NCBI GenBank assembly: GCA_026026165.1
Contig: JAPEUD010000085.1
Location: forward strand, 1 to 64,000
Length of the DNA: 64,000 nucleotides
DNA from: Sarea resinae
Taxonomy: Eukaryota
Direction: 5' to 3'
A model generated the notes under the pieces. That model was not told the origin of the DNA. It did not search any database and worked only from the letters and a program-made list of their open reading frames with translations. The position numbers were made by a program, and so were the translations under genes. Positions 60-25,653 of the stretch are shown in pieces (position 1 is the stretch's first letter; every line of letters starts with the position of its first letter).

Positions 60-2660
60 CCGATGCAGATATAGACGTTCGTATAGAGATATATTGTTCA
101 CATAGGGGTATATGTTCATATCGAGATTTCCTTAGCTCTTAATAAGGGGCAGCTAGGTTGTTCCTCTAGAGAAGATAGTCTGCTAATAGATTTATACACA
201 AAGAACGCGATAATTAGCGAGAGATAAATAATAGAAGTGTTATCCTTAATACAATTTATAATGCTAGAGAGCTCTCTACCTCTTTCAAGCAAACAGTTTT
301 AACTATTATATATAAGAAGAGAGACCTAAATAATATACACAACTATTAACTGCTATCTGTAATAGAGGCAGACTATTAACTTAATACTAACATTCTATCA
401 AACCGCCTAGTACCTCTGCTTAGGATAGTTATCTGTGATCACTAAACAGCTTCTCTACTAGGCTAGAAATAGGAGATAATATATAAAATTAATCTAATAC
501 GCAATAGATATATATAAAGAGAGTGATAAAGAGACAGGTATCTTGTCCCTTAACTAAGAAAAAGCGTATAACTATATAAGCTACATTTACCTATAGAAGT
601 GCCTAAAGAAGATTAAGCTCCTCTAAAGCTAGATTAGGAGCACTAAGGCTTAGTATTCTAGAGGCATAATAGTACTATATATTAATAGGCACTAAGAGAA
701 TATAATAGAGATTAATAACAGAGTATGCTAAAGAGACCTACTCTCTTATATTCTCTATATAATAGTGATTGACTCTATTAATACTATTAGAGATATAAGA
801 AGTAACTTAGATACTATGTAGCGTCTAAATATTAGCAAATAGCGCTGCCTATAACCACTTAGGAATTCTAATAGAGATAGATATTAGGATAGAAATTAAG
901 AGATTCTAGAATACAATAACTATAAGCTTAAAAGAAGATATAAATAAATAGTTAAAGGTTAGATTGTTATAACAAGTAAGAGTAAGGATTGCATTATCTC
1001 TACTTATATTAGTGCCTTAATATGTAGTTAAACACCTAAACCTCTTAAAGAAGAACTAAGATAAGATTAAGAAATTACAATAAGAGTTAATTTAAGGAGG
1101 ATAAGTGATGTTTATACACCTATAAAATAGCGTAGAAGTGCTAAATACCTGCCTTTAGTATTTCCTAAGCCTATTTATAGAAGGGGCTCTATGTTAAAGA
1201 GGAATAGGTACCTAGGCTACATAAACTTAGAGGCTGATTGCAGCTAATAAGTTAGGCCTAATTAACGTTGTAGAGGGACGAAATAGACGCACTAAATCAG
1301 TGCTAATAGGTGAATATCTAGACAGTCCTAACAATACTAGATGCAGTTATCAGGCTAGTTAGAGGACTATATATCAACCTACTACTAAGCAATAGGAAGC
1401 AGAGAGGCGTGCGTAGTAGGATAAGAAGGCGAGGTTCGTGTTAAAGATAGAAGTAATAGTTTTTAATAGCTTGAACTAAATCTCTAGAAACATAAAGATC
1501 TGACTAAACTAAACTCTAGAACTAAACTGAGTAAAAAATAACCTCCTAAACACAAATCCTCCTACCTATTACTAAACTAACTCCCTTGCTAAAGAACACC
1601 TACGTGACTGCTGACTAAGCTAAGCCTAACTGATTCGTCTTATAACAACGTTATAAGGGACTTAATTGACATATAGAATAATATAAACCTGTGTGCCCTT
1701 AGGCGCACACCTAGAGAAAGAACTAGAGTAAATTAAGCTATCTATATAATAATGTTAGGAATCCTAGCTATATAGCGCAGATTACTAGAGGAGATCACTA
1801 AAATAGAACAAAGGTTTTAGAGAAAAGATTAACTCTTTTAGCACTGCTAAATAATATAGGTAGGATCCTACTTAGAAGAAGCTATAGATATTTATTATGT
1901 TACCTATTGATTAGCGTATAAAGCGCTAATAAAGGACAAACTAGCGAACTAGACTTTAAATAATCACATAGTAGATATTGTTAGAACTATAATAAGAAAA
2001 CTAAATAGAGTAGTCTAAGCCTCTAAGCTATAGACAGCGGTAAAAAACAAGGAGCGTGTACTAAAGGCAAATAATCTGTTATATTATCTGTTGCTAGACG
2101 TTGTTAAAACAAGAGAAGCTCTTATATAGGTAGATATTAAAGCTTAAATGTGCTCTATCAACAGCAAGGCCTAAACAATAGAACATATATAGATCTACTA
2201 TAAAATTGCAAGTACAGTGTAGGATACTTTTGTTACAATCTTTAAGCGAGCAGCAAGAGGAAAGTTATTTGCAACTAGACCTACTACTTAATAGGAATTA
2301 GTGGGTTTATTCGCACTAGGACCTAGCCTAACAGATCGATTTGAAGTAATAAGATAGCACATCCTATATTCTAAAGCGGTCTGGCAAATCTAGAAACTAT
2401 ATTGTAACAAACAATATAGGGATCAGAATTTCACTGTGGTAGCTGCTAGAGGAATCTATCAGAAGGCGGTCTGGCACTAAATGATAATAGATAGAGCATG
2501 GTATTAAACACAGAGAGCCTTCTGCAGAAGACAGCTTAGATCTGGCCTCGAACACAAGCCTTGATCTATCTAATGATATCTGTTGGTACAAGGCATAGTG
2601 GCACACTAGAGATAGATGACAAATACACGGGTATAAGGGAGATGACCGATAAAACTGGCG
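60..2660. mobile_element. RIP-degraded repeat/transposon relic (family not identifiable)
   Basis: Strongly AT-rich, TpA-enriched and CpA/TpG-depleted (tataat, ctatag, ttaata throughout), stops in all frames, abrupt return to high GC just before the ADE4 stop codon. Boundaries approximate. Confidence 0.8.
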
Positions 2661-2740
2661 GCTCAATTGTCAGCTGCAGAAATGAGAGATATTCGAAGCC
2701 TTAGATGGTTCATCAACATGTCTAGAAACTTAGTCACTAG

Positions 2741-4504
2741 CTAATGGTGATAGTCTCCAAAATTATGGAGACTGATATCCATCCGGTTGGGGACCTGCTG
2801 AGGCTCGTCCTTTTCCTCAGAGTGCTGGTGGGATCCTCTATTAACGGCGTGACTGTTAATCTGTGCCCCAGCTGCCGAGGCAGGGTCCGAAGCCGGGACG
2901 ACCTGTCCGTTGCTGTCGACCTCGACGCCCTTGGTGGCCATTCGCAATTCGGTCTCTCCAGCAAGCCCATTCATGACTGCTTCTCTCGCGCTCTCCATGA
3001 TCTTCATCTTCTTGCTCTCTCCGCGGATCTGCTCCAAGCGTCTGAAGTAGTCGTCATCGACCGGCGTGACATATTTACCGCAGAATACACCAACTTCAAA
3101 TTCCTGCTTTGCCGGATCCCGAGGGGACAGTTCGGCGCACGAGGTCTTGAGGTCGGCTAATGTCTGGTATATGACGGCGTCGGCCCCAATGTGCTCAGCG
3201 ACCAGCTGCGCGCTACGGTTGTAGGCAATCAGTTCATTAGATGAAGCCAAGTCGATGCCGTAGATGTGAGGAAATGTGATTGGGGGAGCGCAGCTAGCAA
3301 AGAAGACCTTTCGAGCGCCCGCTTCCCGTGCCATGTTCACAATCTCTCGACTAGTCGTGCCACGGACAATACTGTCATCGACCAGGAGAACGTTGCGTCC
3401 TTCGAACTCTGCGCGCATCGCATTGAGCTTTCTTCGCACTCCCTTCTTGCGGGCTTCCTGTCCGGGCATGATGAATGTGCGGAAAACATATCTGTTTTTG
3501 ACGAAACCTTGCGAATACGGAATGTTCAGGTATTGAGCGACGCTCAGTGCGGACGTATTAGAAGTTTCCGGGATCGGAATCACTGCATCGATGCTTCCTA
3601 GAGCCTCCGAGCCCAGTGCTTTTCGAATCGTTTCGGCCAGCTTGTAGCCCATGTTCTGTCGACTCCGATGCACGCTGATGCCGTCGATGATAGTGTCTGG
3701 GCGTGCAAAGTAAACATATTCAAAGATATCTGGGGAATAGGCTAGTCGTGGGTGGACTTGACGGAAGATTGGCTCGCCACCCTTCGGGATGATGACTGCT
3801 TGTCCGGGCAGGATATCGACGATGTTCGTGTATCCAAGCTGGTCTAGGGCGACAGATTCGGAAGCCATCATGTAGTCCATGCCGGGTCCATTCGAGGACG
3901 GGCGAGAGCCCAGCACCATCGGTCGGATGCCATAAGCATCTCGGAATCCGATGATGCCAAACCCAGCAAGCATGGCCGTGCAGGCCCAGCCGCCAACGCA
4001 TCTCTTGTACATCCTCTCGAGACTGGCGAACAAGTCCTCCGCATTCACGCGAGCCTTCTTGGTCTCGTTGAGCTCGTTGGCGAAGATGTTCAACATCAGC
4101 TCGCTGTCACTATCCGTGTTGATGTGTCGGTGGGCTTCATAGTCCAGGAAGTGTTTCAGCTCCGGGGCGTTGATGAGGTTCCCGTTGTGCGCGAAGCAGA
4201 TGCCATACGGACTGTTCACGTAGAAGGGCTGTGCTTCCGCGTTGGCGCTGGTGCCCGCTGTGGGGTATCGCAAGTGACCGAGGCCCATGAAGCCCGGCAG
4301 GTCCGTGATGCGCGATCCGTCGTGGAAGACCTTCGAGGCCATGCCATTTCCCTTGCACTGGTAGATGCGGCCTCCATTCGCGCAGGTAGCAATCCCACAG
4401 GCATCCTGCCCTCTGTGCTGCAAGAGGTACAGCGCCTCGTGGAGCTCGACGACGGCGGACGTCGACGACGGATTGGCGTGGATGAGAGCCAGGATACCGC
4501 ACAT
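2741..4504 (-). CDS. ADE4: Amidophosphoribosyltransferase (glutamine PRPP amidotransferase), intronless, 587 aa
   Basis: N-terminal M-CGI (catalytic Cys1 of Ntn amidotransferases), [39 protein letters not shown]-binding loop [19 protein letters not shown]. True ATG at 4504. Confidence 0.97.
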
Positions 4505-5567
4505 CTTGCCGGTGTTTGGACGGTGGAGTCGGCTCACGAGTGATCAGGGAGGTGGAGAGGAGGTGAGGTGGCCGTGAGATGACCGGTCGCAGAACCTGTA
4601 GAAGAGTCTGCAGGTGGTTCGTCGGTCTCGTTCATCGAGGCAGATTCATCTTGGGGTCTTCCGAATCTTCCTTCGGGCAGGTCCCGACCTCGCAGCTCCC
4701 CTCGGAAGGTGGGGGGAAAAAGACATTAGCCTTCGGCGTATAGAAGGGCCGATGAGCATGTAGCCGAGCTTTTCGGAGGTGTGACCGAGCTACGGCGGTC
4801 CATGCCGCGTTTGCCTGCTCATCACATGACCCGCGCGGCTTTGACCGACGCCAGCAGCTTGCTCCGACGGACGACCAATCTACACTTGCAGAACGCGTGA
4901 AGCATTCGATTGTGACACGAACGATGCATACAAGAGAATCCCCTGGGATGGTTTCAGCAGTGGGCGGAGGTTATCTTGTGCTATCTAGGTCATCAGTCAG
5001 CATCCACGGTGAGGGATGCACGCGCGAGTGTGAGTTGATCTCGGAAAGACTGAGAGAGGTATATTGCTTGCCATGGCTTACGAGTACTCCGGAGTCGTAC
5101 GCTCTGAGACGAGTCACGATCGGGCTGTGGTGGCCGCTGTGCTTTCCGTACGGTGAATGAGTCGGCTTGGTAACCCTTCGCTTCGCTCTTAACGATGCGC
5201 ACCGCACCACTACTTACGTTACTTACGTGCGCGCACTCCTGCTGCTTCCCTGTGCGCCAAAATCTAACTCCTGTAAGAAAATCCTACAAAAATTTGCAAG
5301 CAGAAAGGCCCGAGAGGCCAACCCGGTTGGCCACACATCTTAATCTAATATGATATTGCTAGGATATTCGCCTACAAGAGGCCTCAAAGATGCGTGGAAA
5401 ACCGGAGCATTCACCTATGACAAATCATAGGCCGACAACCCTGCTACCAATAGGTGTTTGGCAGCTGAAGTGAGTTATCTATGGCCAGATCTGACCCAGG
5501 GTACAGAGAAAAGCGAGGGGCCACTATACAGATGAAAGTACCCTGGGTACATCGATCGGTACGAGGC

Positions 5568-5574
5568 TGACTCA
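5568..5574 (+). promoter_or_regulatory. TGACTCA site (Gcn4/CpcA consensus, contains Bas1 core TGACTC) in ADE4/PCS60 divergent promoter; second GAGTCA at 5111-5116
   Basis: GCTGACTCAT read directly; function inferred from motif only. Confidence 0.45.
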
Positions 5575-5835
5575 TCCACCCCACCAATTTCATGGTCCGC
5601 CTGCCGCGCGCGGGCCTCGGGTTCGATGCCTGCCCACGCCGAATCGTCATCATTATTCCCTACTCGCTCGCTTCATGCTTCGCTCCCATGAGAAGCCACC
5701 CCTGTGTTCGAGTTCGGAGTCATCGATCACTCTCCCGATCGTATCGCCATCGACTCGTCGTATCGATGCATCTGTCCACCTTCTGCATCCATTGAAGAGA
5801 TTCATTCCCTCTCATTTCATCCGATCCGATCCACG

Positions 5836-7576
5836 ATGACCACGCTGGCCAATGCATTCTCGACGAGCGCGGACTCGCCCGCAGTCATCGTGCCCACCGG
5901 GGACGGACTGGTGATCACCTATCACCAGCTCGCAGCCCATGTTTCCGCATTCCAGCAGAAGCTCGCTGCGCTGGGAATATCGCCTCGGTCGGCCGTGTCC
6001 ATAGCGCTGCCGAATTCGTTCGAGTTCATCGTCGCCTTCCTCGCCGCCTCGTGGCAACGAGCCATCGCCGCACCGCTGAATCCTGCCTACAAACAGGAAG
6101 AGTTCGAATTCTACATCGATGATCTCAGCTCGGCGGTTGCGCTCGTTCCTCGAGGGGCCTTTGGGCAAGACGCCGCGGCGGTGCGAGCCGCACGAAAGTA
6201 CAAGGCGGCCATAGCAGAGTGCTACTGGGATGGGCAAGAGGTCGTCTTGGACGTGAAGGATGCTGGGAAGCTATCAGGGCAAGGAAACCGACGGGTCGAA
6301 AAGGCTCAGCCAGATGATGTCGCCTTGGTTCTTCACACGAGTGGAACAACAGGGCGACCGAAAGCCGTACGTCGCCAGGAAAGGGCCCCGTTCGCCGATT
6401 TTGGCAATTGACAAGCCGCAGGTTCCGTTGACGCATAAGAATCTCACTCGGACCATGAGCAAGTAGACTGCTGGCAAGGCGAACCGGGAGAGAAAGCTGA
6501 CATTCGATAGAAAACATCCAGGCCACCTACAAGCTCACCCCCGCCGACCGCACTATGCTCGTCATGCCCCTCTTCCACGTTCACGGCCTGCTCGCCGGCC
6601 TCCTCGCCCCACTCCACTCAGGCGGCTCGGTCATTGCCCCTATCCGCTTCTCCGCCTCGGAATTCTGGAAGGACTTTACAACTTTCAAGGCAAATTGGTA
6701 CACGGCAGTGCCGACGATCCACCAGATCCTCCTCCGGAATCCGCCTCCAGATCCCAAACCCAACATTCGCTTCATCCGATCCTGCTCCTCCCCACTCTCC
6801 CCGAAAGTTTTCCATGAGCTGGAAGAGGCATTCAATGCTCCAGTCCTCGAAGCCTACGCCATGACCGAGGCCGCTCACCAGATGACCTCCAACCCCCTTC
6901 CGCCCGCCAAGCGCCTGCCCGGCAGCGTCGGAATAGGCCAAGGCGTCGAAGTTCGTATACTGCCCCCATCCGACACGCAAGACGACAAGGAACTCCCACA
7001 AGGCTCCGAGGGCGAGATCTGCATTCGTGGCGAAAACGTCACCAAAGGTTACCTCAACAACCCGAGCGCAAACAAGTCATCCTTTACGCGGACGGGCTTT
7101 TTCCGGACAGGGGACCAGGGCAAGAAAGATACAGATGGCTACGTAATTCTCACTGGCAGGATCAAGGAGCTTATCAACAAGGGCGGCGAGAAGATCAGCC
7201 CGATCGAGCTTGATAACGTCCTCGCGCAGCACCCGGCCGTGGCCGAGGCCGTCAGCTTCGCCATCGCCGATGAGATGTATGGGCAGGATGTGGGAGCTGC
7301 GATTGTCTTGAAGCAGGGCCAGAACGTCACGGCTGCTGGATTGAAGGAGTGGATGTCGACCAGGGTTGCCAAGTTCAAATTGCCGAAGAAGGTATGCTCC
7401 AAAGCCCCTTGCTCAAATGCCCCCCCTCTCTCTCAAGTGCGATGCTGACATTACTCGCCTGCATCTAGGTCTTCTTCACAGACATCATGCCTAAGACGGC
7501 TACGGGCAAGATCCAGAGGAAGAACGTCGCCGAGGCGATGCTGAAGCAAGAGAAGGAGACGAAAGCGAAACTTTGA
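5836..7576 (+). CDS. PCS60: Peroxisomal acyl-CoA synthetase, Pcs60/AAE3 (oxalate--CoA ligase) family; introns 6367-6421, 6459-6510 (GC-AG), 7392-7468
   Basis: AMP-binding motif LHTSGTTGRPK, MPLFHVHGL, RFIRSCSSPL, LEAYAMTEAAHQMTSNPLPP, FRTGDQG, GRIKELINKGGEKISP, MPKTATGKIQR. Spliced C-terminus ends ...KAKL-stop (PTS1). Confidence 0.92.
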
Positions 7577-8115
7577 GCATCGCACAGGACATGCTCTCTT
7601 CGCTTTGCTCTGCTTCGTCTATGGAACTTCTCGTCTTTTGTTTTCTCTTAGGAGGCAAGGGTGTTTGATGCCTAGGATCTTGCGATTCTGTCATCCACAT
7701 ACCGTAGGAGTCCGCTGTAGCTCTACGCACGCGCGCGCTCTCTCTGCTCTGCTCTGCCTGGCCTTGTTCTTATTCTCCTGTCGGTTCACATCCTCTGCGC
7801 AGCCGCTCTAATGTTTGTGCATTTTCACATGGCTTCTTTGTTAGAAGTCGATATAGCTCAATGTTGACGCAGGCCATTGAATTTTGTAAACTTGTAAGGC
7901 GATAATGTGCTCTAGAGCTATCTCTATCGTTCATTCGTCGCGACCAACAGGAGAAATATGACTACAATTGCGCAGTCCATTGCAGGCTACTCCCGCCCCC
8001 CCTTCCCCCTCTACAGACACACACATACACACACAATTACACATACACTAGCTGCGAGCCACACTTCCCACCCCCGCAGCGCCTCAACCAACCAATCTGG
8101 CCCACCCTAACCCAC

Positions 8116-9406
8116 CTACTCCCCCCCTCCCTCCACAAGCACATCCCCCCACGTCCTCCCAGTCAAGCGCTCGAACGCGTCGCGATACTTGTCCGCCGTG
8201 CCCTTGACGACATGCGCGGGCATCTCGACGCCCTCGCGGCCCTGGAGCCCGTGCTGCGTCAGCCAGTCGCGCAGGTACTGCTTGTCGAAGCTGTCCTGGG
8301 CGCGGCCGGGCGCGTACGTGTCGGCGGGCCAGAAGCGCGACGAGTCGGGCGTGAGGACTTCGTCGACGAGCACGACGCTGGAGGTGGATGGGTCGAGCCC
8401 GAATTCGAATTTGGTGTCGGCGATGATGATACCGCGTTCGAGGGCGTAGGTTGAGGCCTGGCGGAATCGGGGGTTAGTGGGGGGCGGGGTGAAGGATGAT
8501 GTGAGGAGAGGGGCAAAAGGGGGTGGGGTGGTGGGGCTTACGGCGGTGTAGAGTTGGAGTGCGAGATCTTCGATCTGCTGGGCGTATTTCGCGCCGACGA
8601 TCTCGGCAGCTAGAATCGACGGGATCAAAATGTCAGCGTCTCATGACGCCTGGGAGAGGCAAGCCAGCAAGCAGACGAGGGTCGGGGCGCGGGGAGAGGG
8701 TAGTCGGGGGAGGGGACGTCTCATCGACGTACCTTTCTCCGGATGGATATTCTCGTCGTGCGCGCCCTGCTCGGCCTTGGTGCTGGGCGTGTAGATGGCG
8801 CCGTTGGGAAACTTGTCGCTCTCCTGCAGGCCCGCCGGCATCGCGATTCCGTGCACCGTGCCGTGGGCCTGGTATTCCTTCCACGCCGAGCCCGTGATGT
8901 AGCCGCGCACGATGGCCTCGATCGGAAAGATGTGCAGCGCGCGCACCTGCATGCATCGGTTCCGCAGCAGGGCCTGCTGGGACGCGGGGATCGAGGCCGG
9001 CACCTGCAGCGACACGAGGTGTGTCTGTAGCGTTGGGATCAGCGTGCCCAGCACCCGGAACCAGTGCGCGGAAATCAGGTTGAGGAGGATGCCTTTCTCG
9101 GGGACGCCCTGCGAGGTTGTCAGCGGTTGGGTGTCCGTCGGGCTGGGATCCGTCCCCGGGGGGGTCTCGGCGAGAGCGAGACGCGGTGTCTGCTGTTCGG
9201 AAACGAAGGGACGGGCATCGACGTACGTTTTTCATGATCACGTCGTAGGCCGATATGCGGTCCGTGGCGACGAAGAGCAAGGTCTTCCCGCCCGGGAGAC
9301 TGTAGAGGTCGCGGACCTTGCCTCGCGCGACGAGCGTGAGGGAGTCGGTGAGGTCCGTCTGGACCACGACCGACGGCGGCGGTGCTGCCCTCTCGGCGGA
9401 GGCCAT
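8116..9406 (-). CDS. ADE1: SAICAR synthetase (phosphoribosylaminoimidazole-succinocarboxamide synthase), 3 introns
   Basis: [92 protein letters not shown] across exons joined by canonical GT-AG introns. Confidence 0.96.
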
Positions 9407-9591
9407 CGCGAAGGATTCTCAATGGACGCAGAGGTGTTCCTCGAGCGGATGCGGCAGCCTCGTGCCGTGCTGTGATGATCGAAAGGAGCAGCTACGGGTT
9501 CATCTGCGACAGGATGCGAACCGTATACGCAGAACGATGATCAATTCCTCCCGGTATATAAGATAATCATCAAAACCGACGTGTTCTGTTC

Positions 9592-9597
9592 TGACTC
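9592..9597 (+). promoter_or_regulatory. TGACTC (Bas1-type core) in the 422-bp ADE1/ADE2 divergent promoter
   Basis: CTGACTCTT read directly, roughly midway between the two ATGs. Confidence 0.4.
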
Positions 9598-9828
9598 TTC
9601 CTGTGACGCTTCGAACGGGTGGGGTGGTTTGCCCATCGAAAGAGGCTTAGTGCCGTCGCCCGCTCGCTTGATGGATCTCTTATCCACGACGGATCAGGTA
9701 CGGCGGGGGAAGACTGCGCTCGTCTGCCACGAGCAATTCCGTGTCTCGATCAGCATCTACAATCAGACTTTTCCCCCGATTCCAGCCATCATCCAAGTTC
9801 GGGCCACCGCGCATCGCCAGACGTGATC

Positions 9829-11808
9829 ATGGATGGCCGCACGGTGGGCTTGCTGGGGGGAGGCCAGCTCGGACGCATGCTGATCGAGGCCGCCCATCGT
9901 CTCAACGTCAAAGTCGCCGTCCTCGACGCCGAAGATGCGCCGGCCAAGCAGATCAGCGCGCACCCGCACGTCCATGGGTCCTTTGCCGACCCCGAGGCCG
10001 TCCGAAGATTGGCGAAGAGGTGCGACATCCTGACGGTGGAGATTGAGCATGTGGATACCGCCGTCTTGGAGGAATTAGCCACCGGGGACGACCCGATGGA
10101 CGTGCAGCCCAGCTGGCGCACGCTCCGCGTCATCCAGGACAAATACTTGCAGAAGGAGCATTTGATCTCCCAGGGCGCCCGGACGGCCAAGTCGGTACCG
10201 CTGACGGAGAATAGTCCCGCCGAGCTGGAACGGGTCGCGACGGAGATGGGCCTGCCTTTGATGCTCAAGTCGAGAACGCAGGCATATGATGGACGAGGGA
10301 ACTTTCCCCTCAAGACTCGGTCGGATATACCGACGGCACTCAAGGCGTTGGGGGAACGGCCACTCTACGCGGAGAAATGGGCGGATTTCAAAGCAGAGCT
10401 AGCGGTAATGGTGGTGAAGACGGTCGAACAGTCGTCTACGAACTCGTGGGAACAAGGGACTCTGGCATATCCTACGGTCGAGACTGTCCACGAGGAAAGC
10501 ATCTGCAAGCTGGTTTATGCGCCTGCCCGGGGAGTGTCTCCGACGGTCGACCAGCAGGCCCAACTCCTGGCCAGGAAAGCCGTGGCTGGCTTCTGGGGGA
10601 AGGGTGTGTTTGGAGTGGAGATGTTTCTGCTCGAAGATGGTATGAGATTTGTCTAGACTTCTATTCTTCTGCGGTTAACCATCGCTGCAGATACCCTTTT
10701 GATCAACGAGATTGCACCTCGACCGCACAATTCGGGCCACTACACGATAGAAGCCTGCCCTGTCTCGCAGTACGACGCCCAGCTCCGCGCCATTCTCGAC
10801 CTCCCGTTCCCGCCCCAGGGAACGCAGCTGAACACGGCCGACACGCATGCGGTCATGCTGAACTTCCTCGGCGGCGCCAGCCCGACGTCTCATCTGCAGG
10901 TGTCGCGCCGGGCCCTGAGCACGCCTGGCGCGCGCATTCATCTGTATGGAAAAGGAGATGCGCGCCCCGGACGGAAGATGGGCCATGTGACCGTGGTGGC
11001 TGGGACGATGGAGGAGGCTGAGCGCAGGATACAGCCATTGATAGAGGCCGTCGACCGAGTGCGGGCGGAACGTGACACACCAAGCTCATCACGATCGAAA
11101 TCCACCCCCTCGGCGCCTCCTACCACCGCCACGACCACCGGCAACCCATCATCATCGTCGTCCTCTGCCGATCCCGAAACCAAACCCGTCGTCGCCATCA
11201 CCATGGGCTCCGACTCGGACCTCCCCGTGCTAAAACCGGGCATCGCTCTGCTCCGCGATCTCGACATCCCTTACTCCGTGACCATCACATCAGCGCACCG
11301 GACGCCGGGGCGCATGTTCGCCTTTGCGCAAGACGCAGGAGGCAAGGGCATCAGAGTGATCATCGCGGCGGCGGGCGGGGCCGCGCATCTACCCGGCATG
11401 GTGGCCGCCAGCACGCCGTTGCCTGTCATCGGCGTGCCGGTCCGGGGCAGCTCGTTGGACGGCATGGACAGCTTGCTTAGTATCGTGCAGATGCCGGTAT
11501 GTACTTTGATATGTGCTGGGGCTTTGGCTTTCTGCGTCCTCCCTTTCCTTCTTTCCTGCGGCCAGTTGGTCAGGTTGTATGTAAGCTGACTCTCCCAACT
11601 CACACAGCGAGGCGTCCCCGTCGCCACCGTCGCGATCAACAATTCCGTGAACGCGGCCCTGCTCGCCGCGCGCATCCTCGGCACGGCGGACGTCGCGATA
11701 CGCGCGCGCCTCGTGGCGTACGCGAAGGATATGGAGGATGGGGTTTTGGAGAAGGTGGACCGGCTTGAGGGGCAGGGGTGGGAGGCGTATGGGGGTGGTT
11801 CGAGGTGA
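9829..11808 (+). CDS. ADE2: Phosphoribosylaminoimidazole carboxylase, fungal PurK-PurE fusion; introns 10640-10690, 11497-11607
   Basis: GLLGGGQLGRM, LTVEIEHVD, QDKYLQK, AYDGRGN, INEIAPRPHNSGHYT, RPGRKMGH (ATP-grasp PurK), then MGSDSD, SAHRTP, IAAAGGAAHLPGM, SIVQMP|RGVPVATVAINN (PurE). S/T/P-rich linker between domains. Confidence 0.97.
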
Positions 11809-11995
11809 ACCGGGGGAAGTGGATGGAATTAGATTTTTATCTCCTGAAAAGTAATGAAAAAGATGAAGGACTGTTGTCCTTACCACTAGCTCTATCCCTT
11901 GGAAGTTTTCCTCTCAGAGCTATGTAGTTGATATTGCTCGATCTTCTCGGATCAGATCGAAGAGAGAGATCATATCAATGCTTTTGTGGGGCAGC

Positions 11996-12041
11996 AAGTG
12001 CGCAGTGCTTTGTGCCTCTGTGCACAAAGCACTGCGCACTT
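11996..12041. repeat. Perfect 20-bp inverted repeat with 6-nt spacer between convergent ADE2 and ADE8
   Basis: AAGTGCGCAGTGCTTTGTGC (11996-12015) - CTCTGT - GCACAAAGCACTGCGCACTT (12022-12041); arms are exact reverse complements. Confidence 0.95.
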
Positions 12042-12102
12042 CTCTCGCCTCAATCATTCCTAACCTCTTGTTTTATCCAGTACGCGTTTGATAGAAGGTG
12101 AT

Positions 12103-12747
12103 TCACACTATTCTCTCGATAGCCATCTTTGTCCCTCGGACAATAGCCTTCCACTCCACCTCATGCACCTTCTGCTCGAATCTCTCCAAATCCTCGTCCT
12201 CGCCCTTCACAAATGGTATCTCCACCACTAACAACGGCTGTCCTTCATCGACCGCGAGGATCACCTCATGTATCATAATCCCCGACTTTTCAATCTTCCC
12301 CTCCAGCCAAGCCGCGTGGGCCCTTTCAATAGCATTAGTTCCCTTGAATGCCTCTGGTAAACTAGGATGCAGATTTATGATCTTCACGCCAGCTTTTGCG
12401 AGAGGGTCTAGAAATAACGGCGTGAGGATGTGCATGAAGCCTGCGCAGACAACCAGGTCCGGTTCGTCTGCGAGGACAAGTGATGCGAGATCTGCGTCGT
12501 AAGCTGAGCGGGCGCGGTCAACATCATTCGGGTAGAGCTTCTTGTAGGACACGAGATTGTGGTACGCGGTTGGTATCGAGGCGTTCTCGGCGCGTTGGAG
12601 GCCGTAGGCGGATTTGCGGTTGGAGATGACGCGGATGATCCGGGCCGGATCGAGGGGCCCGTCTCTGCAGGCGTCGATGAGCGCCTGGAGGTTGGTGCCG
12701 TTGCCCGAGATCAGCACCGTCAAGCGCGTCGGATTGGAAGTGGCCAT
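12103..12747 (-). CDS. ADE8: Phosphoribosylglycinamide (GAR) formyltransferase, intronless
   Basis: LTVLISGNGTNLQALID, VISNR, PDLVVCAGFMHIL, INLHPSLP (catalytic Asn/His), HEVILAVDEG (catalytic Asp), VHEVEW. ATG at 12747. Confidence 0.95.
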   Translation of the reverse strand: MATSNPTRLTVLISGNGTNLQALIDACRDGPLDPARIIRVISNRKSAYGLQRAENASIPTAYHNLVSYKKLYPNDVDRARSAYDADLASLVLADEPDLVVCAGFMHILTPLFLDPLAKAGVKIINLHPSLPEAFKGTNAIERAHAAWLEGKIEKSGIMIHEVILAVDEGQPLLVVEIPFVKGEDEDLERFEQKVHEVEWKAIVRGTKMAIERIV

Positions 12748-13023
12748 GATCGAGGATCGACGAGGATGAAAGGTGGTCTTCGGCGCGGACTTGCAAGGCA
12801 GACCAAAGGTCGTCACAGCCACGACGTCGAGTTGCCCAATTTTGGATGGAGGGGGAGTTGGTGGTGAACACCGCCGTGCGTGTGGAGAAGGCGGTGAGAA
12901 GCGACACGGCAGTTTCCGTCTCCCCATCAGAGTCGCCGGCGCCCACGTACGGCGGCGTCGCGGAGGACGCCCCATCGTGAGGGCCGGTGGCCTGGCCGGC
13001 GAAAAGAATTCCAGGTGGACATC

Positions 13024-13031
13024 TGAGTCAT
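13024..13031 (-). promoter_or_regulatory. ATGACTCA (Gcn4/CpcA consensus) in ADE8/zinc-finger divergent promoter
   Basis: TGAGTCAT on + strand, ~280 bp upstream of the ADE8 ATG. Confidence 0.45.
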
Positions 13032-13685
13032 CGAGTGCAGTCAGTTCCTGACGAGATCCAGGAGCATTCTTCTCTGGTCTCATGGACGGCTGAGGAAAGG
13101 TACGCGCACCTCGAATCGCAGTCACATTGATGCTTAGAGATTAGGCTTAGATGGATTGATAAGTGGGTGGGTGGGTACCTTGGTGGGTAGATGGCGGAGA
13201 TGGGAATCTCTGCACTCGCGCGGTTTGCGACCAGACATCTCCCCTCTTCCGCTTCCCCCCTCCCCCTCCACCCGCCAGATCGATGGTGCTCGCGCATGTC
13301 ACTACTGTCACCGGTGACAGTCTGGTCCATCTGTCTATCATCCCCGCTGCTCCACCGGGCAGATCGCTTATTGCACCCTGATCTCCCTCTGATCTCCCTC
13401 CTTCTTCTTCTTCTTCTTCTTCTCCTCCTCACCTCATCTCATCTCACCTGCTCTCCACACTCTTTCGGCATCTTCCCTTGATAGCTACAACCTTGTGGGC
13501 AATCGTAAGTCATCTCTCTCATCGGTGGATCCCTCACACGGTGCATACGCGCTTTGGTGCTGCTTGGTGGGGCCCTCACCATCGAGTCGGCTTGGCCAGG
13601 TCATCTCGAGATGATCGGAATCGGTGTCCGTTTCGGTTGAGAACGTGCGTCACTGACCCGGATGTCCGAGCAGTGAAGACGAAGG

Positions 13686-16195
13686 ATGACGACGATGTCG
13701 AGGGAGAGCTCCTCGGGGCTGCTACCCGCCTTGACGCCAGATGACGACGCAAGATCCGTGTGTCTGTCCTGTAGTGATTGCTGCAGCGAGGACCATTGCG
13801 CACCGGCTTGTGATGACTCCTGTGCGGGCGACTGTGACGAAGAGGATATCTGCACCAGTCCCCACTGCACTCAGGGAGCATGTCTCGAGACCTGCTCGGA
13901 AGCCTGCCCGAACATCTGCCCCGAGGCTTGTCCAGAAGCCTGCCCCGAACCTTGCCCCGAGGCCTGTCCGGGGACTGGCCCGCAATTTCCTCTGCCATGC
14001 TACAACCCACAATGCTCGCCGCACGTCTTCGGCCATGGACTGTCTGCGACATCAGCCTTTGCCAACACCCTCTCTCCGGGAACCATCTCCACCTCGGCAA
14101 CGCCGGAGACTTTCACGAATCCCTGGTTAACGCCCGAGCAGTGCGCCGCCAGCCTTGGTGCTTCGCTTGGGAACTTTCAGGTATATGATGCTCATCACAA
14201 TGCTCAGCTATATCCACCATGGCAAAACATGGATCTACATCACGCTCATCTGCCCTATCAACCCTATCCCGAGCAATCCAACGAACGGAAGTTCGAGAAT
14301 TCCCTTGGCGATGGGCGCGCTCAGACGAGTCATGACCACGAGTTCCGTCCCCTGAATGCCAACTTCCAGCATCCAGACTGGCTAGAACAGGTGCCACCAA
14401 TTTCAAACGGCGAACATTTGCATTGCCATTGGAGCAACAAGGACGACGGCTGTGGGGAAGCATTTTTCGACTGGAACGCTTTCTCTAGCCACATCCAGCA
14501 AAGCCATATCATACCTCAAACTTCGACTAATTGCGCACTGGATCATTGTGGGCAGTTGATAGAACCATCAATGGTCGTCGATCATCTCCAACAATATCAT
14601 TCATTTGACGGGCATCAGCCTGCCAACATGGAGCACCCTTGCCTGTTTGAGGGCTGCGAAGATCGATTCTCGACTTTGGAGGACTGCTGGGATCATTACC
14701 AATCTTCTCATAACCTTCTTCACTGTCAATGGGATCAATGCGGCGCCGTAGCCACGGATCCGTCGGACCTGAACGAGCACCTTCAAACGAATCACTTTGT
14801 CGAGCATCCACCGATCTGTCTGGATCACTCCCAGTTCATAACCCCAGCAGCCCCTACAGCGGCCGAAGTACCTGCCCTGACTTCAGTACCTCCCTTGACT
14901 CCAGCACCTACGCCTTCTCAAGCGCTGCTACAGCAACCTGGAGTTGCCCAAGTAATCCCTAAAAACGAGATCACTAAGCCTATGCCATGTAGTTGGCTGG
15001 TCGACGGGCAACACGGTCGTCAACGATGCGGAGTGGTCTGTCAAAATGCTTCCGAGCTGCAAGATCACCTGACGAAAGTTCACATCAGCTGCTTGACTAA
15101 AAGGATCGGGTTTCTGTGCAAGTGGGACGGCTGCAAGCGAAAGGAAACGCAAACGTTCACGCAGAAGGGAAAATTGGAGAGGCATATGCAGGTGCATACG
15201 GGATGTAAGTTTATTACCAGGTGGTTCTCCTGCGACGATAGTTTGACCGGCTTCCTCCAGATAAATCATGCCTGTGCCATACATGCAACATTGCATTCTC
15301 GGCTCCTCAGGCTCTGCAACAGCACATCCGCACGCATACGGGCGAAAAGCCATTCTACTGTCCATTTTGCCATCATCTTTTCGCGCAAGGTAGTGCTCTT
15401 AGTACGTAAATCTTTTGCCTTGTTTGCTATCGGCGATACTAATCCTACTTGCTGGGACAGCTATGCATGTCCGAACGCACACCCGCGAGAAGCCTCTTCA
15501 GTGCGAATTTCCTGGCTGTGGGAAGAGATTCAGCGAGGTATATATACGACCCATTCGTGTGTGATTTGTTCTTCCTGACCTGTCCTTTAGTCGTCCAACC
15601 TTTCCAAGCATAGGAAGAGTATGTGTCTTGACCCTTGGGACGAGAAAATAACCTTTTGAACTTCAGTCACTGACTTGGCATACAGCACATGAAAAGAATG
15701 GCAAACACAAGTGCGAATTTCCAGGGTGTACCAGGACTTTTCACCGCCTAGGTAAGTCTTTCAGTGAACACTTCCAAGCCCACTTGCACGCAGCAATCCA
15801 CCCTTCAAGCTCGAAAGAGACATCGAATTCTAATTCAAATACCAGACCAACTGAAACGCCACCAAGGCACCCATAGTCCGGATAGCAAGAATGGTAGGAA
15901 TGGGATGAACAATAAGAACACTAAGACCGGCACGAACTCCAACCCCGGCAAGGTCCCCAAGACCGGTAGGGTCACCAAGACCGGTAGGGTCACCAAGACC
16001 GGTAAGAACAATAAGACCGGCAAGAACAACAAAACCAGCAAGCCTGGCAATGAAGGCCACGATTCCGGTACAATAGGCCTCCCGATCCCTGGTCCGGACA
16101 GCAGACACAACAGCAATGACGTCCTCATCAATGGCGTTGATAGTCAACTCAATGTCAGTCTCGGTATTGGTCTTGGCGATATTCCGGACAATTGA
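13686..16195 (+). CDS. Zap1/ZafA-like multi-C2H2 zinc-finger transcription factor with Cys-rich N-terminus; about 5 introns between 15206 and 15845
   Basis: Spliced C-terminal fingers [25 protein letters not shown]...[12 protein letters not shown]...[32 protein letters not shown]...FHRL|DQLKRH resemble the Zap1 DNA-binding region. Several CxW...C..H..H fingers upstream; 20 Cys in residues ~25-110. Confidence 0.85.
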
Positions 16196-16852: not shown

Positions 16853-17199
16853 ATCGCCGTCTCACACCCCTCTTCTAGTGGATGTACTCTAGAGTTTCGA
16901 GTAGAGTGCGTAGGACAGATCGCACAATAACAACAGCACAAACCATAGAACATGATATCCTGAATGCTTAATGCTAGATCTTGATCTGCATCCCAGTGGA
17001 CGTCGTCCGGGGGAAGACTAAGGTTAGTAGGTATAGACTTCTAGTACTTCGTACATGCAGTAGTGGCTCTCTGTTCTATGTGTCTGTCTTTCGCAGTGAT
17101 TCTATTCTGAGAGTCTCGTTATTGTCGTGTGCACTCCTCGCGCTTTATATCGACCCCCCCTTGTACTCTCTGTCTGCCCTCTCTGTCTTGTGCTAGATC

Positions 17200-18170
17200 T
17201 ATTTCTAAGATATATATCTATATCTAGAGAGAGAGAGAGAGAGAGAGATCCTTAATCTGCTAATCCACTAACCTACTAATCTCACTACTCTACTCTACTA
17301 GGGAAAACACCTTAAGGTCGTTTCATATAGAGATAGCTGCTAGGTAGGTTCTGCAGGTGAGATATCCTTCTATAGTACAGTCTTAAGTGATCTATAAAGC
17401 CCCTTCCTATTAGCTGCTAAATCCTGCAGTAACGTGACCTAATCCCTTTAATAACTTCGCAGTAGACCTGACCCCTATGATTATTCTAAGCATTAACACT
17501 ATCAGTACAATATAATCTAAATTTGTTACGTATTCTATAGATACCTTATCTAGACGTTGCTGCACCTAATGCTCTGTTTTTTAACCTTAAGCAAACTTTC
17601 TAAAAGCCTTAGGCAACATTTATTAGAGTAACTATTAATATAATAGCTGCAGAGTATTTCTCTATAACTCTACTTTGTTTATATTATAGCTGATTGTAAT
17701 AGAGCGCAAAACGTACAAGCTACTAAGCTTAAAGACCTCTTGAACTAACGTCTATTAATCCTTACGGTACCTCTAAATTAGAGGAACGACATAGCAAGCG
17801 GCAACAGCGGCGAATTCAACCTCGCGCTGCCTTGACACAGTATAAACCTGCTCCTCTACCTTCTCCTACATATATACTAGGGCTTTGAATTAATCCTTCT
17901 CTTCTAAGGCCACCACCTCCTAATAGCTACTCGATTATACGAATGCATTTGGTAAGGTAGTTAGCGGTAAGAAAGGCACTGTAGCTGCACGCCTTTATCT
18001 CAGTGCTTTTCCGCATACTAGCCATCCTTTCTATAGAGCAGTCTCTCCTTTACTCAATTGATCACAACTTCTCTGCTACTCTTCTTATATAGCACTAATA
18101 ATACATGATGTGTATAATATCTGCCTATCACCTCTAATTACGATTAACTTTTAAGTTCAGCTATAACAGA
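17200..18170. mobile_element. RIP-degraded repeat relic preceded by an (AG)n tract
   Basis: TpA-rich, CpA-poor. A minus-strand frame near 17700-17930 reads like protein (EVVALEEKD*FKALV...EKVEEQV...REVEFAAVAA) interrupted by TAA/TAG compatible with CAA/CAG transitions. Confidence 0.7.
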
Positions 18171-18526: not shown

Positions 18527-19708
18527 TCAAAAGATGCCGCTGAAGTCAAACACACCGTCCTTCCCTCTCTCAACCGCCCCCTTTTCGGTCACGACGGCAT
18601 CGATAAGCTCGGCGGGGGTGACATCAAAGCTTGGATTCCAGACCTTCACACCGGGCGCGGCGATCCTGACCGTCTCGACCACATCCAGATCCAGCACATC
18701 CTCGGGATCGGCCGCCGCCGCCCCCTTAGCCCCCTGCACGACTCGGGGACCTCTGACGCTCGTCATCTCCTTCCCGGGGCGTTCCTCGATGACGATCTCG
18801 GCGCCGGAGGGCGTGGAGAGATCGATCGTCGTCCGCGGCGCCGCGACGATGAATCTGATGCCGTGTTGACGCGCTAGGATGGCGAGGCCATACGTGCCGA
18901 TCTTGTTCGCCGTGTCTCCGTTTCTCGCCACGCGGTCTGCGCCTACGACGATGGCGGCGATGTTGTCGCTTGAGCCGCGTAGACGTAAGAGGGCCGCCGC
19001 CATGGAGTCGGTAATCAAGGTCGAGGGGATCCCGTCGTGTAAGAGTTCGTAGGCCGTGAGACGCGCGCCTTGATTATAGGGTCGAGTTTCGGTGAAGAAG
19101 GCCTGGCTGAGATGCGAGGTGGAGTAGAGCGTGCGTATGATGCCTAGAGCGGTGCCGTGCCCGGCAGTGGCGAGGGATCCCGTGTTGCAGTGCGTCAGCA
19201 CACTTATCTGGCCTGCACTTCGTCCCGCGGGCAGATGGCCGAGGATCCACTCCGCGCCGAACTTGCCGATGTTCTCGTTGTCGTGCACGTCATCCACGAG
19301 CATCTTCTCCGCCGCCTTGATGTAAGCCTCCTTGATCGCATCGCCGTTGGCGTCCTTTTCCGCCTTGGCGCTCGCGACGACCCTCTTCAATTTCCTCGCC
19401 GCGTCCGCCATGTTCACCGCCGTGGGCCGACTCGTGACGAGGTAGTCGAGCTTCTCCTCCACAAACAGAGCCACCTCCTCTGGCACGGCACTCAGGCTTC
19501 TCCTCGAGGCGATGATCTCGAGCTCGACTGCCAGCGAGAGGGCGGCGACGATGGCGATGGCGGGGGCGCCGCGCACCAGCATCGAGTGGATCGCGTGCCA
19601 GGCATCTTGGGCTGAACGGATAGGGGCGTAGACGGTGGTGTGGGGGAGGGCAAGCTGATTGATGATGGACAGCGAGCCGCGGTGGTATTTGATCGCCTCG
19701 AGCGTCAT
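18527..19708 (-). CDS. MRI1: Methylthioribose-1-phosphate isomerase (methionine salvage), intronless
   Basis: MLVRGAPAIAIV, TSRPTAVNM, VLTHCNTGSLATAGHGTALG, ETRPYNQGARLT, VVGADRVARNGDTANKIGTY, NPSFDVTP. Confidence 0.96.
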   Translation of the reverse strand: MTLEAIKYHRGSLSIINQLALPHTTVYAPIRSAQDAWHAIHSMLVRGAPAIAIVAALSLAVELEIIASRRSLSAVPEEVALFVEEKLDYLVTSRPTAVNMADAARKLKRVVASAKAEKDANGDAIKEAYIKAAEKMLVDDVHDNENIGKFGAEWILGHLPAGRSAGQISVLTHCNTGSLATAGHGTALGIIRTLYSTSHLSQAFFTETRPYNQGARLTAYELLHDGIPSTLITDSMAAALLRLRGSSDNIAAIVVGADRVARNGDTANKIGTYGLAILARQHGIRFIVAAPRTTIDLSTPSGAEIVIEERPGKEMTSVRGPRVVQGAKGAAAADPEDVLDLDVVETVRIAAPGVKVWNPSFDVTPAELIDAVVTEKGAVERGKDGVFDFSGIF

Positions 19709-20065
19709 CGTGAGGTCTAGGCAGGAGCGACAGAAACGCTTTCGGAGACGGAGGTTGGAGGTCTTCGTGATGGCGGGGCAGAAATTCGGGAGGAGGGGTG
19801 AAGGCGGTGAGGGAGGGAAAAGTTGGCGAGACGCGAGGGCAAGCGAGCGAGGCGACCTAGGCGATGGGGGCGAGATCGGGGATCGACAAAGAACAATTTA
19901 GACTGGAGCTATCATCATCGTCCTCGGAGCAGAACCACCTAGCTCATCACCGCAGCTCAATTGCATTTCATCGAGCATCAGGGAGACTTCTATCGATCGA
20001 TTCCTCAACCACGACGATACCCAATCGATCCAGCCGATTCCCTCCCCGATACACCTCTCAACACC

Positions 20066-20944
20066 ATGGCCTCTCCACCGCCCCGCCGCATCGCAACTCT
20101 CATCCGCAACACCAACGAAACCAAGATTTCCCTCTCCCTCTCCCTCGACGGCGGCGATCTCCCGGCCTTGGAGCACAATCCAGAATTCGCCTCCAAAGCC
20201 CCCTCCTCCGGCGATGGCGAGAGCAAGGGACTCAGCAGCAGTAGCACGACCGCCCACGCGACACAGCGGTCCTCATCACAGAGCATCGAGATAGATACGG
20301 GCATCGGCTTTCTGGATCATATGCTGCACGCTCTAGCCAAGCACGCGGGGTGGAGTTTACGGATAAGATGCCAAGGGGACCTGCATAGTATGTATCCGCC
20401 CCCCGCCCCTCACGCTCACGCTCATCCTCGTGCCTCATCATCCCCGATCTCCTTTCTGACTTACCAACTCTGCGCTCCTTCGCTTGTCCTCACCGTATAC
20501 TAATCCCTCCCCCCCCCCCCGCTAGTTGACGACCATCACACCTCGGAAGACACGTTCCTCGCGCTAGGAGCCGCCTTCCGACAAGCCCTCAGCTCTCTCC
20601 CCGGAGGTTCCACGGGCCTCGCCCGCTTCGGCCACGCCTACTGCCCACTGGACGAAGCCCTTTCGCGCGCCGTCATCGATCTCTCGAGCCGCCCTTTCTG
20701 CGTCGCCAATCTCGGCCTGAAGCGAGAAAAGGTGGGCGATCTGAGCACGGAGATGCTGCCGCACTGCCTGCAATCTTTCAGCCAGACGGCGGGCGTGACG
20801 TTGCATGTCGATTGCCTGAGGGGGGATAATGACCATCATCGGGCGGAGTCGGCGTTCAAGGCGTTGGCGGTGGCGACGAGGCAGGCTACTACGAGGGTCG
20901 CAGGGAGGGAGGGCGAGGTCATGAGTACGAAGGGTGTGCTGTAG
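20066..20944 (+). CDS. HIS3: Imidazoleglycerol-phosphate dehydratase; intron ~20388-20525
   Basis: [84 protein letters not shown]-stop. Confidence 0.96.
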
Positions 20945-25154: not shown

Positions 25155-25653
25155 GTTCGGTGATGGCCCACGCCGTCCGCGAAGAGAGCCATCTGAGGAT
25201 GAGGAGCGGCCGCCCTCATCACGGCGTCAATTGCTCTTCGTCCTCTCCGTCCCCTTCCCCGATGGCCGCCTGTGGCTTCGAACGCTCTCACGGTCACGTG
25301 CGTGGCAACCGGCCCTTCCCGCGGTCGTTCTACGGGTGCCGTCGCTGCTGAGATTCCTCTCGCGTCTGATTGGCCGTCGCCACCCGTGCGGTGATGATCT
25401 CAGCATGTCGACAACCGAGCGAGTTCCGAGGTCGATCGCCGCCGGGAGTCTTAGGTTGGGAATTTCGAGAGGCGGCATCGTGGGACTCTTCATCTTCACC
25501 TTCACCGTTGCCGTTGCCTTCCTTTCACCTCCACCTGCATCTCGTTTCTCCGCATCAGGACGTCGAGAGGAGTAGTGGTTGACCCGCAGCGACGACCTCT
25601 GGTCCATCAACTCAGCCTGCAATTCGAGATCTCTGCCGTTCGCCTCGAGCATC

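Follow-up and report, generated by a model that had tools for sequence, protein, structure and literature searches.

Four genes of de novo purine biosynthesis lie within 10 kb of each other in Sarea resinae: do they form a genuine gene cluster, and were they gathered from native genes, inherited as an old linkage, or acquired together? Most known gene clusters of fungal primary metabolism belong to pathways for conditionally used nutrients, and it is mainly on them that ideas on the gathering of eukaryotic pathway genes are tested, be it for co-regulation, for the avoidance of toxic intermediates, or for co-inheritance. A de novo purine cluster would contrast with these: its pathway is essential, is needed at all times, and has no obvious toxic-intermediate logic. 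We found no published fungal purine gene cluster in the open-access literature that we searched; the text supplements of Wisecaver 2014 contain no purine-cluster EC pairs, and the CLOCI paper makes no mention of purine. The locus is a rare candidate for a fungal gene cluster that serves an essential biosynthetic pathway. We studied it in a window of 64 kb (the whole stretch of DNA that was analysed), which is part of one contig in a metagenome-assembled genome (MAG).

Gene content and organisation of the locus

The sequence-only reading had described four ADE genes, intact and within 10 kb, with one intervening gene. Our annotation recovered all of them (Table 1), with profile matches above the cut-offs for ADE4 and ADE8. 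The gene order is ADE4, PCS60-like, ADE1, ADE2, ADE8, with strands alternating throughout (- + - + -), and the four purine genes span 10,007 bp (2741-12747), from the first base of the ADE4 stop codon to the A of the ADE8 ATG. They cover steps 1, 3, 6 and 7 of the pathway and are interrupted by a single unrelated gene, the PCS60-like one. Like the fungal metabolic clusters of the GAL/DAL type, the locus brings together at least three adjacent, non-homologous genes of one pathway. The genes for the six steps encoded by ADE5,7, ADE6, ADE13 and ADE16/17 were not found in the 64-kb window. MRI1 and HIS3 lie near the cluster, in head-to-head orientation.

The identity of the genes was established with protein profiles and alignments. 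ADE4 matched the NCBIfam purF equivalog (TIGR01134) with 406 bits for a cut-off of 350, as well as the Pfam families GATase_6/7 and Pribosyltran, and its translation shows the N-terminal Met-Cys and the 17-residue loop. ADE8 matched Pfam Formyl_trans_N and the PurN equivalog TIGR00639 (173.9 bits, cut-off 150.1), and its NLHPSL and VDEG motifs align with solved GAR transformylases (PDB). A longer ORF of 345 aa can be read for ADE8, with an N-terminal extension that is not conserved in a relative with a long N-terminus; hence, we took the ATG at 12747 as the start. Both large exons of ADE1 matched purC models. The deposited ADE1 model (349 aa) retains an in-frame intron of 84 nt, and the homologues lack this stretch in the alignment. 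Our model of ADE2, which encodes purK followed by purE, gives the same protein as the one deposited (P0121). The PCS60-like gene matched Pfam AMP-binding and AMP-binding_C, and the best solved relative of its product is an oxalate-CoA ligase (8aff, E 5.8e-110).

Table 1. Genes, intergenic regions and candidate promoter elements of the purine locus (positions in the 64-kb window).
Feature	Product or content	Position	Strand	Structure
ADE4/purF	amidophosphoribosyltransferase, step 1	2741..4504 incl. stop; coding 4504..2744	-	single exon, 587 aa
ADE4/PCS60-like region	divergent intergenic region	4505..5835		1331 bp
PCS60-like	oxalate-CoA ligase	5836..7448 (end of modelled part)	+	at least 3 exons
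ADE1/purC	SAICAR synthetase, step 7	8116..9406; exons 9406-9227, 9108-8733, 8609-8542, 8457-8116	-	four exons, three spliceosomal introns, 321 aa
ADE1/ADE2 region	head-to-head intergenic region	9407..9828		422 bp between start codons
ADE2	fused PurK-PurE AIR carboxylase, step 6	9829..11808; exons 9829-10639, 10691-11496, 11608-11808	+	three exons, two spliceosomal introns, 605 aa
ADE2/ADE8 gap (convergent 3' ends)	perfect 20-nt inverted repeat, 6-nt loop	11996..12041 (inverted repeat)		gap of 294 bp
ADE8/purN	GAR transformylase, step 3	12103..12747 incl. stop; coding 12747..12106	-	single exon, 214 aa
ADE8 5' region	divergent from Zap1-like zinc-finger ORF	12748..13700
TGACTC, ADE4/PCS60-like region		5111	-
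TGACTC, ADE4/PCS60-like region	full TGACTCA	5568	+
TGACTC, ADE4/PCS60-like region		5717	-
TGACTC, ADE1/ADE2 region		9592
TGACTC, ADE8 5' region	full TGACTCA	13024-13030
TATATAAG element, ADE1/ADE2 region		near 9555

Ancestry of the genes

The ADE4 protein is 79% identical to that of Xylona heveae and is its sister in a tree of 32 of the best 120 matches (SH-aLRT 97). ADE2 is likewise sister to Xylona (SH-aLRT 91, 26 of the best 120 matches), and ADE1 falls within Leotiomyceta, where its placement is not resolved by the tree (20 of the best 120 matches). This agrees with a published phylogeny that places Sarea with Xylona (PMC9157775). The end branches in the three gene trees are of ordinary length (0.15, 0.23 and 0.24, versus medians of 0.23, 0.25 and 0.19). 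All named matches among the best 120 for each of ADE4, ADE2 and ADE1 are fungal, with 59-79% identity, many of the rows being nameless. The best representatives of ADE8 are also fungal (57-64% identity).

An acquired pur operon should carry bacterial phylogenetic affinity and consist of co-directional, intron-free genes. We observed gene trees that follow fungal classes, alternating strands, and introns in ADE1 and ADE2. The four genes are native and of fungal ancestry, with vertical descent seen for ADE4, ADE2 and ADE1. The sequence-only reading had called the genes fungal-type from their introns and the PurK-PurE fusion, to which the alternating strands and the fungal named matches can be added. 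It had also held the transfer of a bacterial operon to be unlikely and had proposed gene trees as a check on vertical descent; the sister relation of ADE4 and ADE2 to Xylona, the position of ADE1 inside Leotiomyceta, the introns and the mixed strands bear it out on both points.

Linkage in related fungi

We compared the linkage of ADE4, ADE1 and ADE2 in the species common to two lists of best 120 matches, telling contigs apart by eye from their sizes in the match tables; ADE8 was compared at one Eurotiomycete-like metagenome contig (L001). ADE4 and ADE2 were on separate contigs in all seven common species (in five of which both contigs exceed 160 kb), ADE1 and ADE4 in all 12 (seven of them single-member clusters on both sides), and ADE1 and ADE2 in four out of five, keeping in mind that separate short contigs are still compatible with proximity. 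Xylona, the nearest sequenced genome, is without the cluster: it encodes ADE4 on a different scaffold from ADE1 and ADE2, which share one scaffold of 3,129,946 bp with accessions 203 apart, their distance being judged from accession order. The accessions of ADE1 and ADE2 are consecutive in Sarea resinae.

A metagenome scan with the ADE2 alignment gave 591 confirmed loci, of which 80 were kept. ADE2 was alone in 69 of these. Of the 11 loci with further pur genes, all but L023 look bacterial; the 11 are 27-36% identical to the ADE4, ADE1 and ADE8 of the window (33-41% for ADE2). The single Pezizomycotina-like locus among the 80 of 591 was L001, whose ADE2 shares 67-73% identity with ADE2 proteins of the Eurotiomycete-like kind. 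In the 10 kb to either side of it we found no ADE1, ADE4 or ADE8, and instead genes for AIM24, TAF8, SH3 and a sugar transporter. None of the 80 kept loci had counterparts of window ORFs besides ADE2. An ADE4 match (P0012, from ENA) and an ADE8 representative (P0365, from Logan) are both on contigs of 3323 bp; we made no use of this pair, chance being plausible and the sources being different.

The linkage was thus absent where compared, i.e., in Xylonomycetes, Geoglossomycetes, Lecanoromycetes, Lichinomycetes, Eurotiomycetes and Leotiomycetes. Since the ADE4/ADE1/ADE2 linkage is missing in every relative compared, Xylona included, it is most parsimonious to regard it as not ancestral and as derived by relocation in the Sarea lineage. 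ADE4, ADE1 and ADE2 therefore behave like the genes of the GAL/DAL type of cluster, native and relocated, with unlinked counterparts in relatives. An assembly by relocation of native genes had been proposed from the window alone, and the comparison with relatives and the gene trees uphold it for these three genes.

Candidate regulation

TGACTC elements are of the type to which Bas1 and Gcn4/CpcA bind in other fungi. The window contains 21 such sites. The three 5' intergenic regions, 2631 bp in total, have five of these against an expectation of 0.86 (Poisson P 0.002); the baseline is the average for the window as a whole, not for other promoters, and ADE genes should have such sites in any case, clustered or unclustered. 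Two of the three full TGACTCA sites of the window are in the 5' regions of the cluster. The only 8-mer common to all three 5' regions, CCGCCGTA, was not counted as a motif because it has six copies in the window. The sequence-only reading had also called the cluster operon-like, and the enrichment of TGACTC is the one indirect sign of such a putative co-regulation. In a wood-decay metatranscriptome run, we recovered 0.17 of the sampled words, a fraction from which we draw no conclusion on expression or habitat.

Origin of the cluster and alternative explanations

We consider that the locus is a lineage-specific physical cluster of native, housekeeping de novo purine genes, which arose by rearrangement after the split from Xylona-like relatives and is probably coordinately controlled, and we give this reading a probability of about 0.6. 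A genome rearrangement would have joined ADE4, ADE1, ADE2 and ADE8 after this split. Blocks that are AT-rich and RIP-like flank the cluster on both sides (TpA/ApT 1.49 and CpA+TpG ratio 0.76 at 60-2700; 1.66 and 0.73 at 17001-18000), and they suggest that repeats mediated the rearrangements. The four genes would give separate mRNAs, with the 422-bp region as a putative bidirectional promoter shared by ADE1 and ADE2. Control by adenine and amino acids would most likely act through ancestral trans-acting factors, because TGACTC elements are kept in all three 5' regions, and the close spacing in one chromatin neighbourhood may make expression more tightly coordinated.

The cluster could also be real and derived yet functionally neutral, a by-product of repeat-mediated rearrangements that brought no gain in co-regulation and was not selected. 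The unrelated PCS60-like gene is embedded in it, only four of the ~10 pathway genes are present, the genes have retained their individual orientations and promoters, ADE genes should have TGACTC sites wherever they lie, and RIP-like repeats lie on both flanks. A 208-genome survey also reports that clustered genes of nucleotide metabolism are under-represented in Pezizomycotina (PMC4256263). However, four of ~10 pathway genes would fall within 10 kb by chance in about 2e-8 of genomes, assuming random placement in a genome of 35 Mb, and this value stays small when allowing for many genomes and pathways. Furthermore, head-to-head pairs of the ADE1-ADE2 type, here 422 bp apart, are described as conserved and functionally linked in fungi in an earlier study (PMC2871058). 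We therefore view neutrality as unlikely, though deserving serious consideration. Ancestral synteny, broken repeatedly in other lineages, would fit the shared scaffold of ADE1 and ADE2 in Xylona and the genetic linkage of ad-3A and ad-3B in Neurospora, but it requires many independent losses, given the absence of the linkage in the six classes compared, and we find it very improbable.

The two other alternatives question the data or the role of the genes. A chimeric MAG contig might have brought together genes that lie apart in the organism: the source carries a MAG label, and the single DNA run with all of the sampled words could be identical with the source. Yet, such an artefact needs three false joins within 10 kb, exactly in the intergenic gaps of 294-1331 bp, in a region where we found no internal repeats able to cause a false join and where GC is uniform (53-65% throughout 3-14 kb); ADE4 and ADE2 moreover have the same sister taxon. 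This makes a mis-assembly hardly credible. Alternatively, the genes could be extra paralogues belonging to a cluster for a specialised metabolite or for resistance, with the housekeeping copies elsewhere, as the adenylating enzyme within the cluster might suggest. But this enzyme is an ordinary oxalate-CoA ligase, and no backbone enzyme is adjacent: Pfam searches of the cluster ORFs and of the ORFs of at least 100 aa at 13-64 kb revealed no PKS, NRPS or terpene synthase, and no tailoring enzymes adjoin the cluster. The genes are 70-79% identical to their orthologues, have normal branch lengths, and have no second protein with the Sarea label among the best 120 matches of the ADE4, ADE2 and ADE1 searches. 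Hence, this explanation is highly unlikely.

A more ambitious view takes the locus as a nascent "purine supergene" that is selected and co-regulated, with shared chromatin, Bas1/Gcn4-type control, and the PCS60-like ligase and the MRI1/HIS3 neighbourhood as members. The oxalate-CoA ligase would supply formate, by the breakdown of oxalyl-CoA, to the 10-formyl-tetrahydrofolate used by ADE8, whereas MRI1 (methylthioadenosine salvage, adenine release) and HIS3 (histidine pathway, AICAR) would make up an extended PRPP/adenine neighbourhood. If true, no eukaryotic cluster for an essential nucleotide-building pathway would have been seen before this one, and it would be observed early in its assembly; we hold this view to be improbable. 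Under the preferred reading, a lineage-specific cluster of relocated housekeeping genes, the origin would be recent enough for the genes to be still dispersed in the closest sequenced relative. The order of relocation and any gain of co-expression can therefore be tested directly, in a comparison of Xylona with isolates of Sarea/Tromera.

Comparison with known systems

The DAL, GAL, nitrate assimilation and biotin clusters are for the most part concerned with nutrients that are used conditionally. The Sarea cluster resembles them in that native, non-homologous genes of one pathway appear to have been joined by relocation in one lineage; it differs in serving an essential anabolic pathway, of which it covers four of the ~10 steps, its co-regulation being putative. 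Such gathering of native, non-homologous pathway genes by relocation in one lineage is described for DAL (PMC2776167).

Bacterial pur operons combine the same enzymes (purF, purC, purE/K and purN), and bacterial-type neighbourhoods were found in 11 of the 80 kept metagenome loci. In contrast, the Sarea genes have alternating strands, their own promoters, introns, a PurK-PurE fusion and a fungal phylogeny. Judged by these features, the cluster is not a transferred bacterial operon.

In Neurospora crassa, the genes of SAICAR synthetase and AIR carboxylase (ad-3A and ad-3B) are close on one chromosome arm, with other genes between them. The same two genes are linked in Sarea, but there they directly adjoin each other, head-to-head, and ADE4 and ADE8 lie with them.

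A parallel to this pair exists in vertebrates. The human PPAT and PAICS genes (GPAT/AIRC) are 70 bp apart according to PMC2871058 (citing Brayton 1994; Gavalas & Zalkin 1995). In both cases two de novo purine genes stand head-to-head on opposite strands over a short common intergenic region, and the activities overlap (amidotransferase, AIR carboxylase, SAICAR synthetase). The partners differ: the Sarea pair consists of ADE1 and ADE2, the activities of which are combined in the fusion protein PAICS, whereas the amidotransferase gene ADE4 faces the unrelated gene of the oxalate-CoA ligase, and ADE8 is attached as a fourth gene. The two arrangements are independent, with a putative promoter function in Sarea, and the ADE1-ADE2 pair parallels not only the PPAT-PAICS pair of vertebrates but also the fusion within PAICS.

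Gene content and models

The window holds what looks like a real, derived cluster of four native purine genes, the derived linkage being that of ADE4, ADE1 and ADE2. Six-frame ORFs and Pfam/NCBIfam scans of the window bore out the gene list and coordinates of the sequence-only reading. Intron borders (GT...AG) were taken from the sequence and then verified by translation. The window's ADE1 and ADE2 proteins are labelled as consecutive genes on a 96,348-bp contig of a metagenome-assembled genome named Sarea resinae. Our ADE2 and ADE4 models are identical to the deposited proteins. In the deposited ADE1 (349 aa), an in-frame intron of 84 nt is retained and translated into 28 extra residues. The Xylona and Pycnora homologues have no such insert, and our shorter model fits better than the deposited one. 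Catalytic signatures are intact in ADE4 (Cys right behind the initiator Met, plus the PRPP loop) and in ADE2 (PRPHNSGH and GGAAHLPGM), and ADE8 carries NLHPSL and VDEG in alignment with solved GAR transformylases. The top solved relative of the PCS60-like ligase is the oxalate-CoA ligase 8aff (E 5.8e-110).

Features of the purine gene cluster and of its surroundings in the window
Feature	Position	Strand	Remarks
Left AT-rich block	60-2700		TpA/ApT 1.49; (CpA+TpG)/(ApC+GpT) 0.76
ADE4/purF	4504..2744	-	1 exon, 587 aa; TIGR01134, 406 bits (cut-off 350)
PCS60-like acyl-CoA ligase	5836 to at least 7448	+	several exons
ADE1/purC	between PCS60-like ligase and ADE2	-	4 exons, 321 aa
Intron retained in deposited ADE1	8458-8541
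ADE2	right of ADE1	+	3 exons, 605 aa; PurK-PurE fusion
Inverted repeat	11996-12041		perfect, 20 nt; 6-nt loop
ADE8/purN	12747..12106	-	1 exon, 214 aa; TIGR00639, 173.9 bits (cut-off 150.1)
Cys/His-rich ORF	13677-15578	+
Right AT-rich block	17001-18000		TpA/ApT 1.66; (CpA+TpG)/(ApC+GpT) 0.73
MRI1/mtnA, methylthioribose-1-phosphate isomerase	18530-19897	-	TIGR00512, 442 bits
HIS3, imidazoleglycerol-phosphate dehydratase	about 19943-20941	+	2 exons
SDH2-like iron-sulfur subunit	25576-26646	+	Fer2_3 plus Fer4
Ankyrin-repeat protein	31208-32668	-	NPHP3_N/NACHT-type N-terminal part
Gamma-glutamyltranspeptidase	48054-49619	+

Origin of the genes

Every named match to ADE4, ADE2 (queried with exon 1) and ADE1 (exon 2, both with the 'longer' search) was fungal among the best 120 listed for each, many of which are unnamed. 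The closest match listed was Xylona heveae (79% identity for ADE4, 70-73% for ADE2, 70% for ADE1). We built quick maximum likelihood trees (LG+G4, SH-aLRT support only) from named matches picked by hand among these 120. The window was sister to Xylona for ADE4 (32 matches, SH-aLRT 97) and ADE2 (26 matches, SH-aLRT 91), and its ADE1 was placed among Leotiomyceta classes without a resolved sister (20 matches). Groups at class level were mostly recovered and the window branches were not long. This picture agrees with the grouping of Sarea with Xylona as it appears in published work (PMC9157775). The best 50%-identity cluster representatives for ADE8 were 57-64% identical, and the named ones among the 10 examined were fungal GAR transformylases (Patellaria, Cryomyces, Sphaerosporella, Vezdaea). 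The earlier view that the genes are of fungal type thus held: with named matches fungal and ADE4 and ADE2 sister to Xylona, a bacterial transfer can be excluded from these sequence comparisons. Transfer between fungi found no support in the gene trees or in the best matches listed.

Linkage in relatives

We compared by eye the contig size given for each match across the ADE4, ADE2 and ADE1 tables (best 120 matches each), using it as the key to linkage. We left out Aureobasidium pullulans with its many strains, Paecilomyces variotii (multi-strain clusters), the second Trichoglossum assembly and Endocarpon pusillum, which was represented by two different strains. ADE4 and ADE2 lay on separate contigs in all seven species compared (ADE4 and ADE2 contig sizes, respectively: Xylona, 733,607 and 3,129,946; Trichoglossum GP486, 3,538 and 4,654; Lambiella, 544,612 and 768,236; Agyrium, 250,561 and 297,934; Arachnomyces PD_36, 1,247,977 and 722,083; Thelocarpon superellum, 31,760 and 28,728; Phylliscum, 164,881 and 209,819), although in two of the seven the contigs are short, and genes on separate short contigs could still be close. 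ADE1 and ADE4 were likewise separate in 12 of 12 species, seven of them with single-member clusters on both sides, and ADE1 and ADE2 in four of five (Piccolia and three Xylographa). Among these best 120, the contig of the window itself and one scaffold of Xylona were the sole sizes to recur between tables. The Xylona scaffold carries both ADE1 and ADE2, with accessions (XP_018190689 and XP_018190486) 203 apart, unlike the consecutive accessions of the window's pair; here we take accession order as gene order. A 385-kb metagenome contig (L001) has an intron-free ADE2, 67-73% identical to Eurotiomycete-like ADE2 proteins. AIM24, TAF8, SH3-domain and sugar-transporter genes flank it, and ADE1, ADE4 and ADE8 were not found within 10 kb on either side. 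Taken together, the contig comparisons, the Xylona accessions and L001 argue that the ADE4-ADE1-ADE2 linkage is derived in the window's lineage, a claim that does not extend to ADE8.

The contigs of an ADE4 homologue (P0012, ENA) and an ADE8 homologue (P0365, Logan) are both given as 3323 bp; either the match in size is due to chance, or a further fungus has ADE4 and ADE8 as a pair.

Layout, flanks and regulation

ADE4 and the ligase gene are divergent (1331 bp between them), ADE1 and ADE2 head-to-head (422 bp from ATG to ATG), and ADE2 and ADE8 tail-to-tail (294 bp). Because strands alternate, the genes are predicted to be separate transcription units. The inverted repeat, midway between the convergent 3' ends, may be a common 3'-end element of ADE2 and ADE8. 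Bas1 has TGACTC as its core site, and Gcn4/CpcA the longer form TGACTCA. The window has 21 TGACTC sites against about 40 expected from shuffles. Five of them fall in the three 5' intergenic regions (2631 bp), against 0.86 expected from the window average rather than from other promoters (Poisson P 0.002). Full TGACTCA sites occur three times in the window, twice within these regions. This distribution fits ordinary ADE-regulon control and is alone no proof that the cluster is controlled as a unit.

The cluster lies in a GC-rich block (2.7 to 17 kb) bracketed by two AT-rich blocks (33-40% GC), the left one beginning directly past the ADE4 stop codon. Their dinucleotide indices are RIP-type by the usual thresholds. 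The cluster could have been assembled via repeat-mediated rearrangement, which such flanks fit without proving it.

No further purine genes were found in the other 51 kb of the window by Pfam scans of ORFs (31 of at least 150 aa and 125 of the 158 of at least 100 aa, most of the rest having been scanned earlier). Divergent from ADE8 lies an ORF whose N-terminus is rich in Cys and His and whose matches to C2H2 and Zap1_zf1 are weak and below threshold. This ORF probably encodes a zinc-responsive factor of the Zap1/ZafA type with C-terminal fingers split by an intron, and its domain matches gave no sign of a purine-specific regulator. MRI1 and HIS3 form a head-to-head pair, 6-8 kb to the right of ADE8. 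Each belongs to a pathway that touches adenine/AICAR metabolism; a tie to the purine cluster is speculative. The SDH2-like, ankyrin-repeat and gamma-glutamyltranspeptidase genes are ordinary.

Comparison with known systems

In the open-access papers searched, among them a review of fungal purine metabolism, we came across no account of a cluster for de novo purine synthesis in a fungus. Clustered genes of nucleotide metabolism are given as under-represented in Pezizomycotina in a survey of 208 fungal genomes (PMC4256263). A 5.2-kb metagenome contig (L023) carries divergent purC-like and purK-like genes about 455 bp apart (150-3698), with a purE-like part another 715 nt on; its purine-like proteins are 35-43% identical to those of the window. 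The four-gene cluster is a new addition to the primary-metabolism clusters already known from fungi, with a functional role that is putative. Within the sources consulted, the closest eukaryotic precedent is the divergent PPAT-PAICS pair of vertebrates (PMC2871058), and the closest in kind are fungal clusters of relocated genes such as DAL (PMC2776167).
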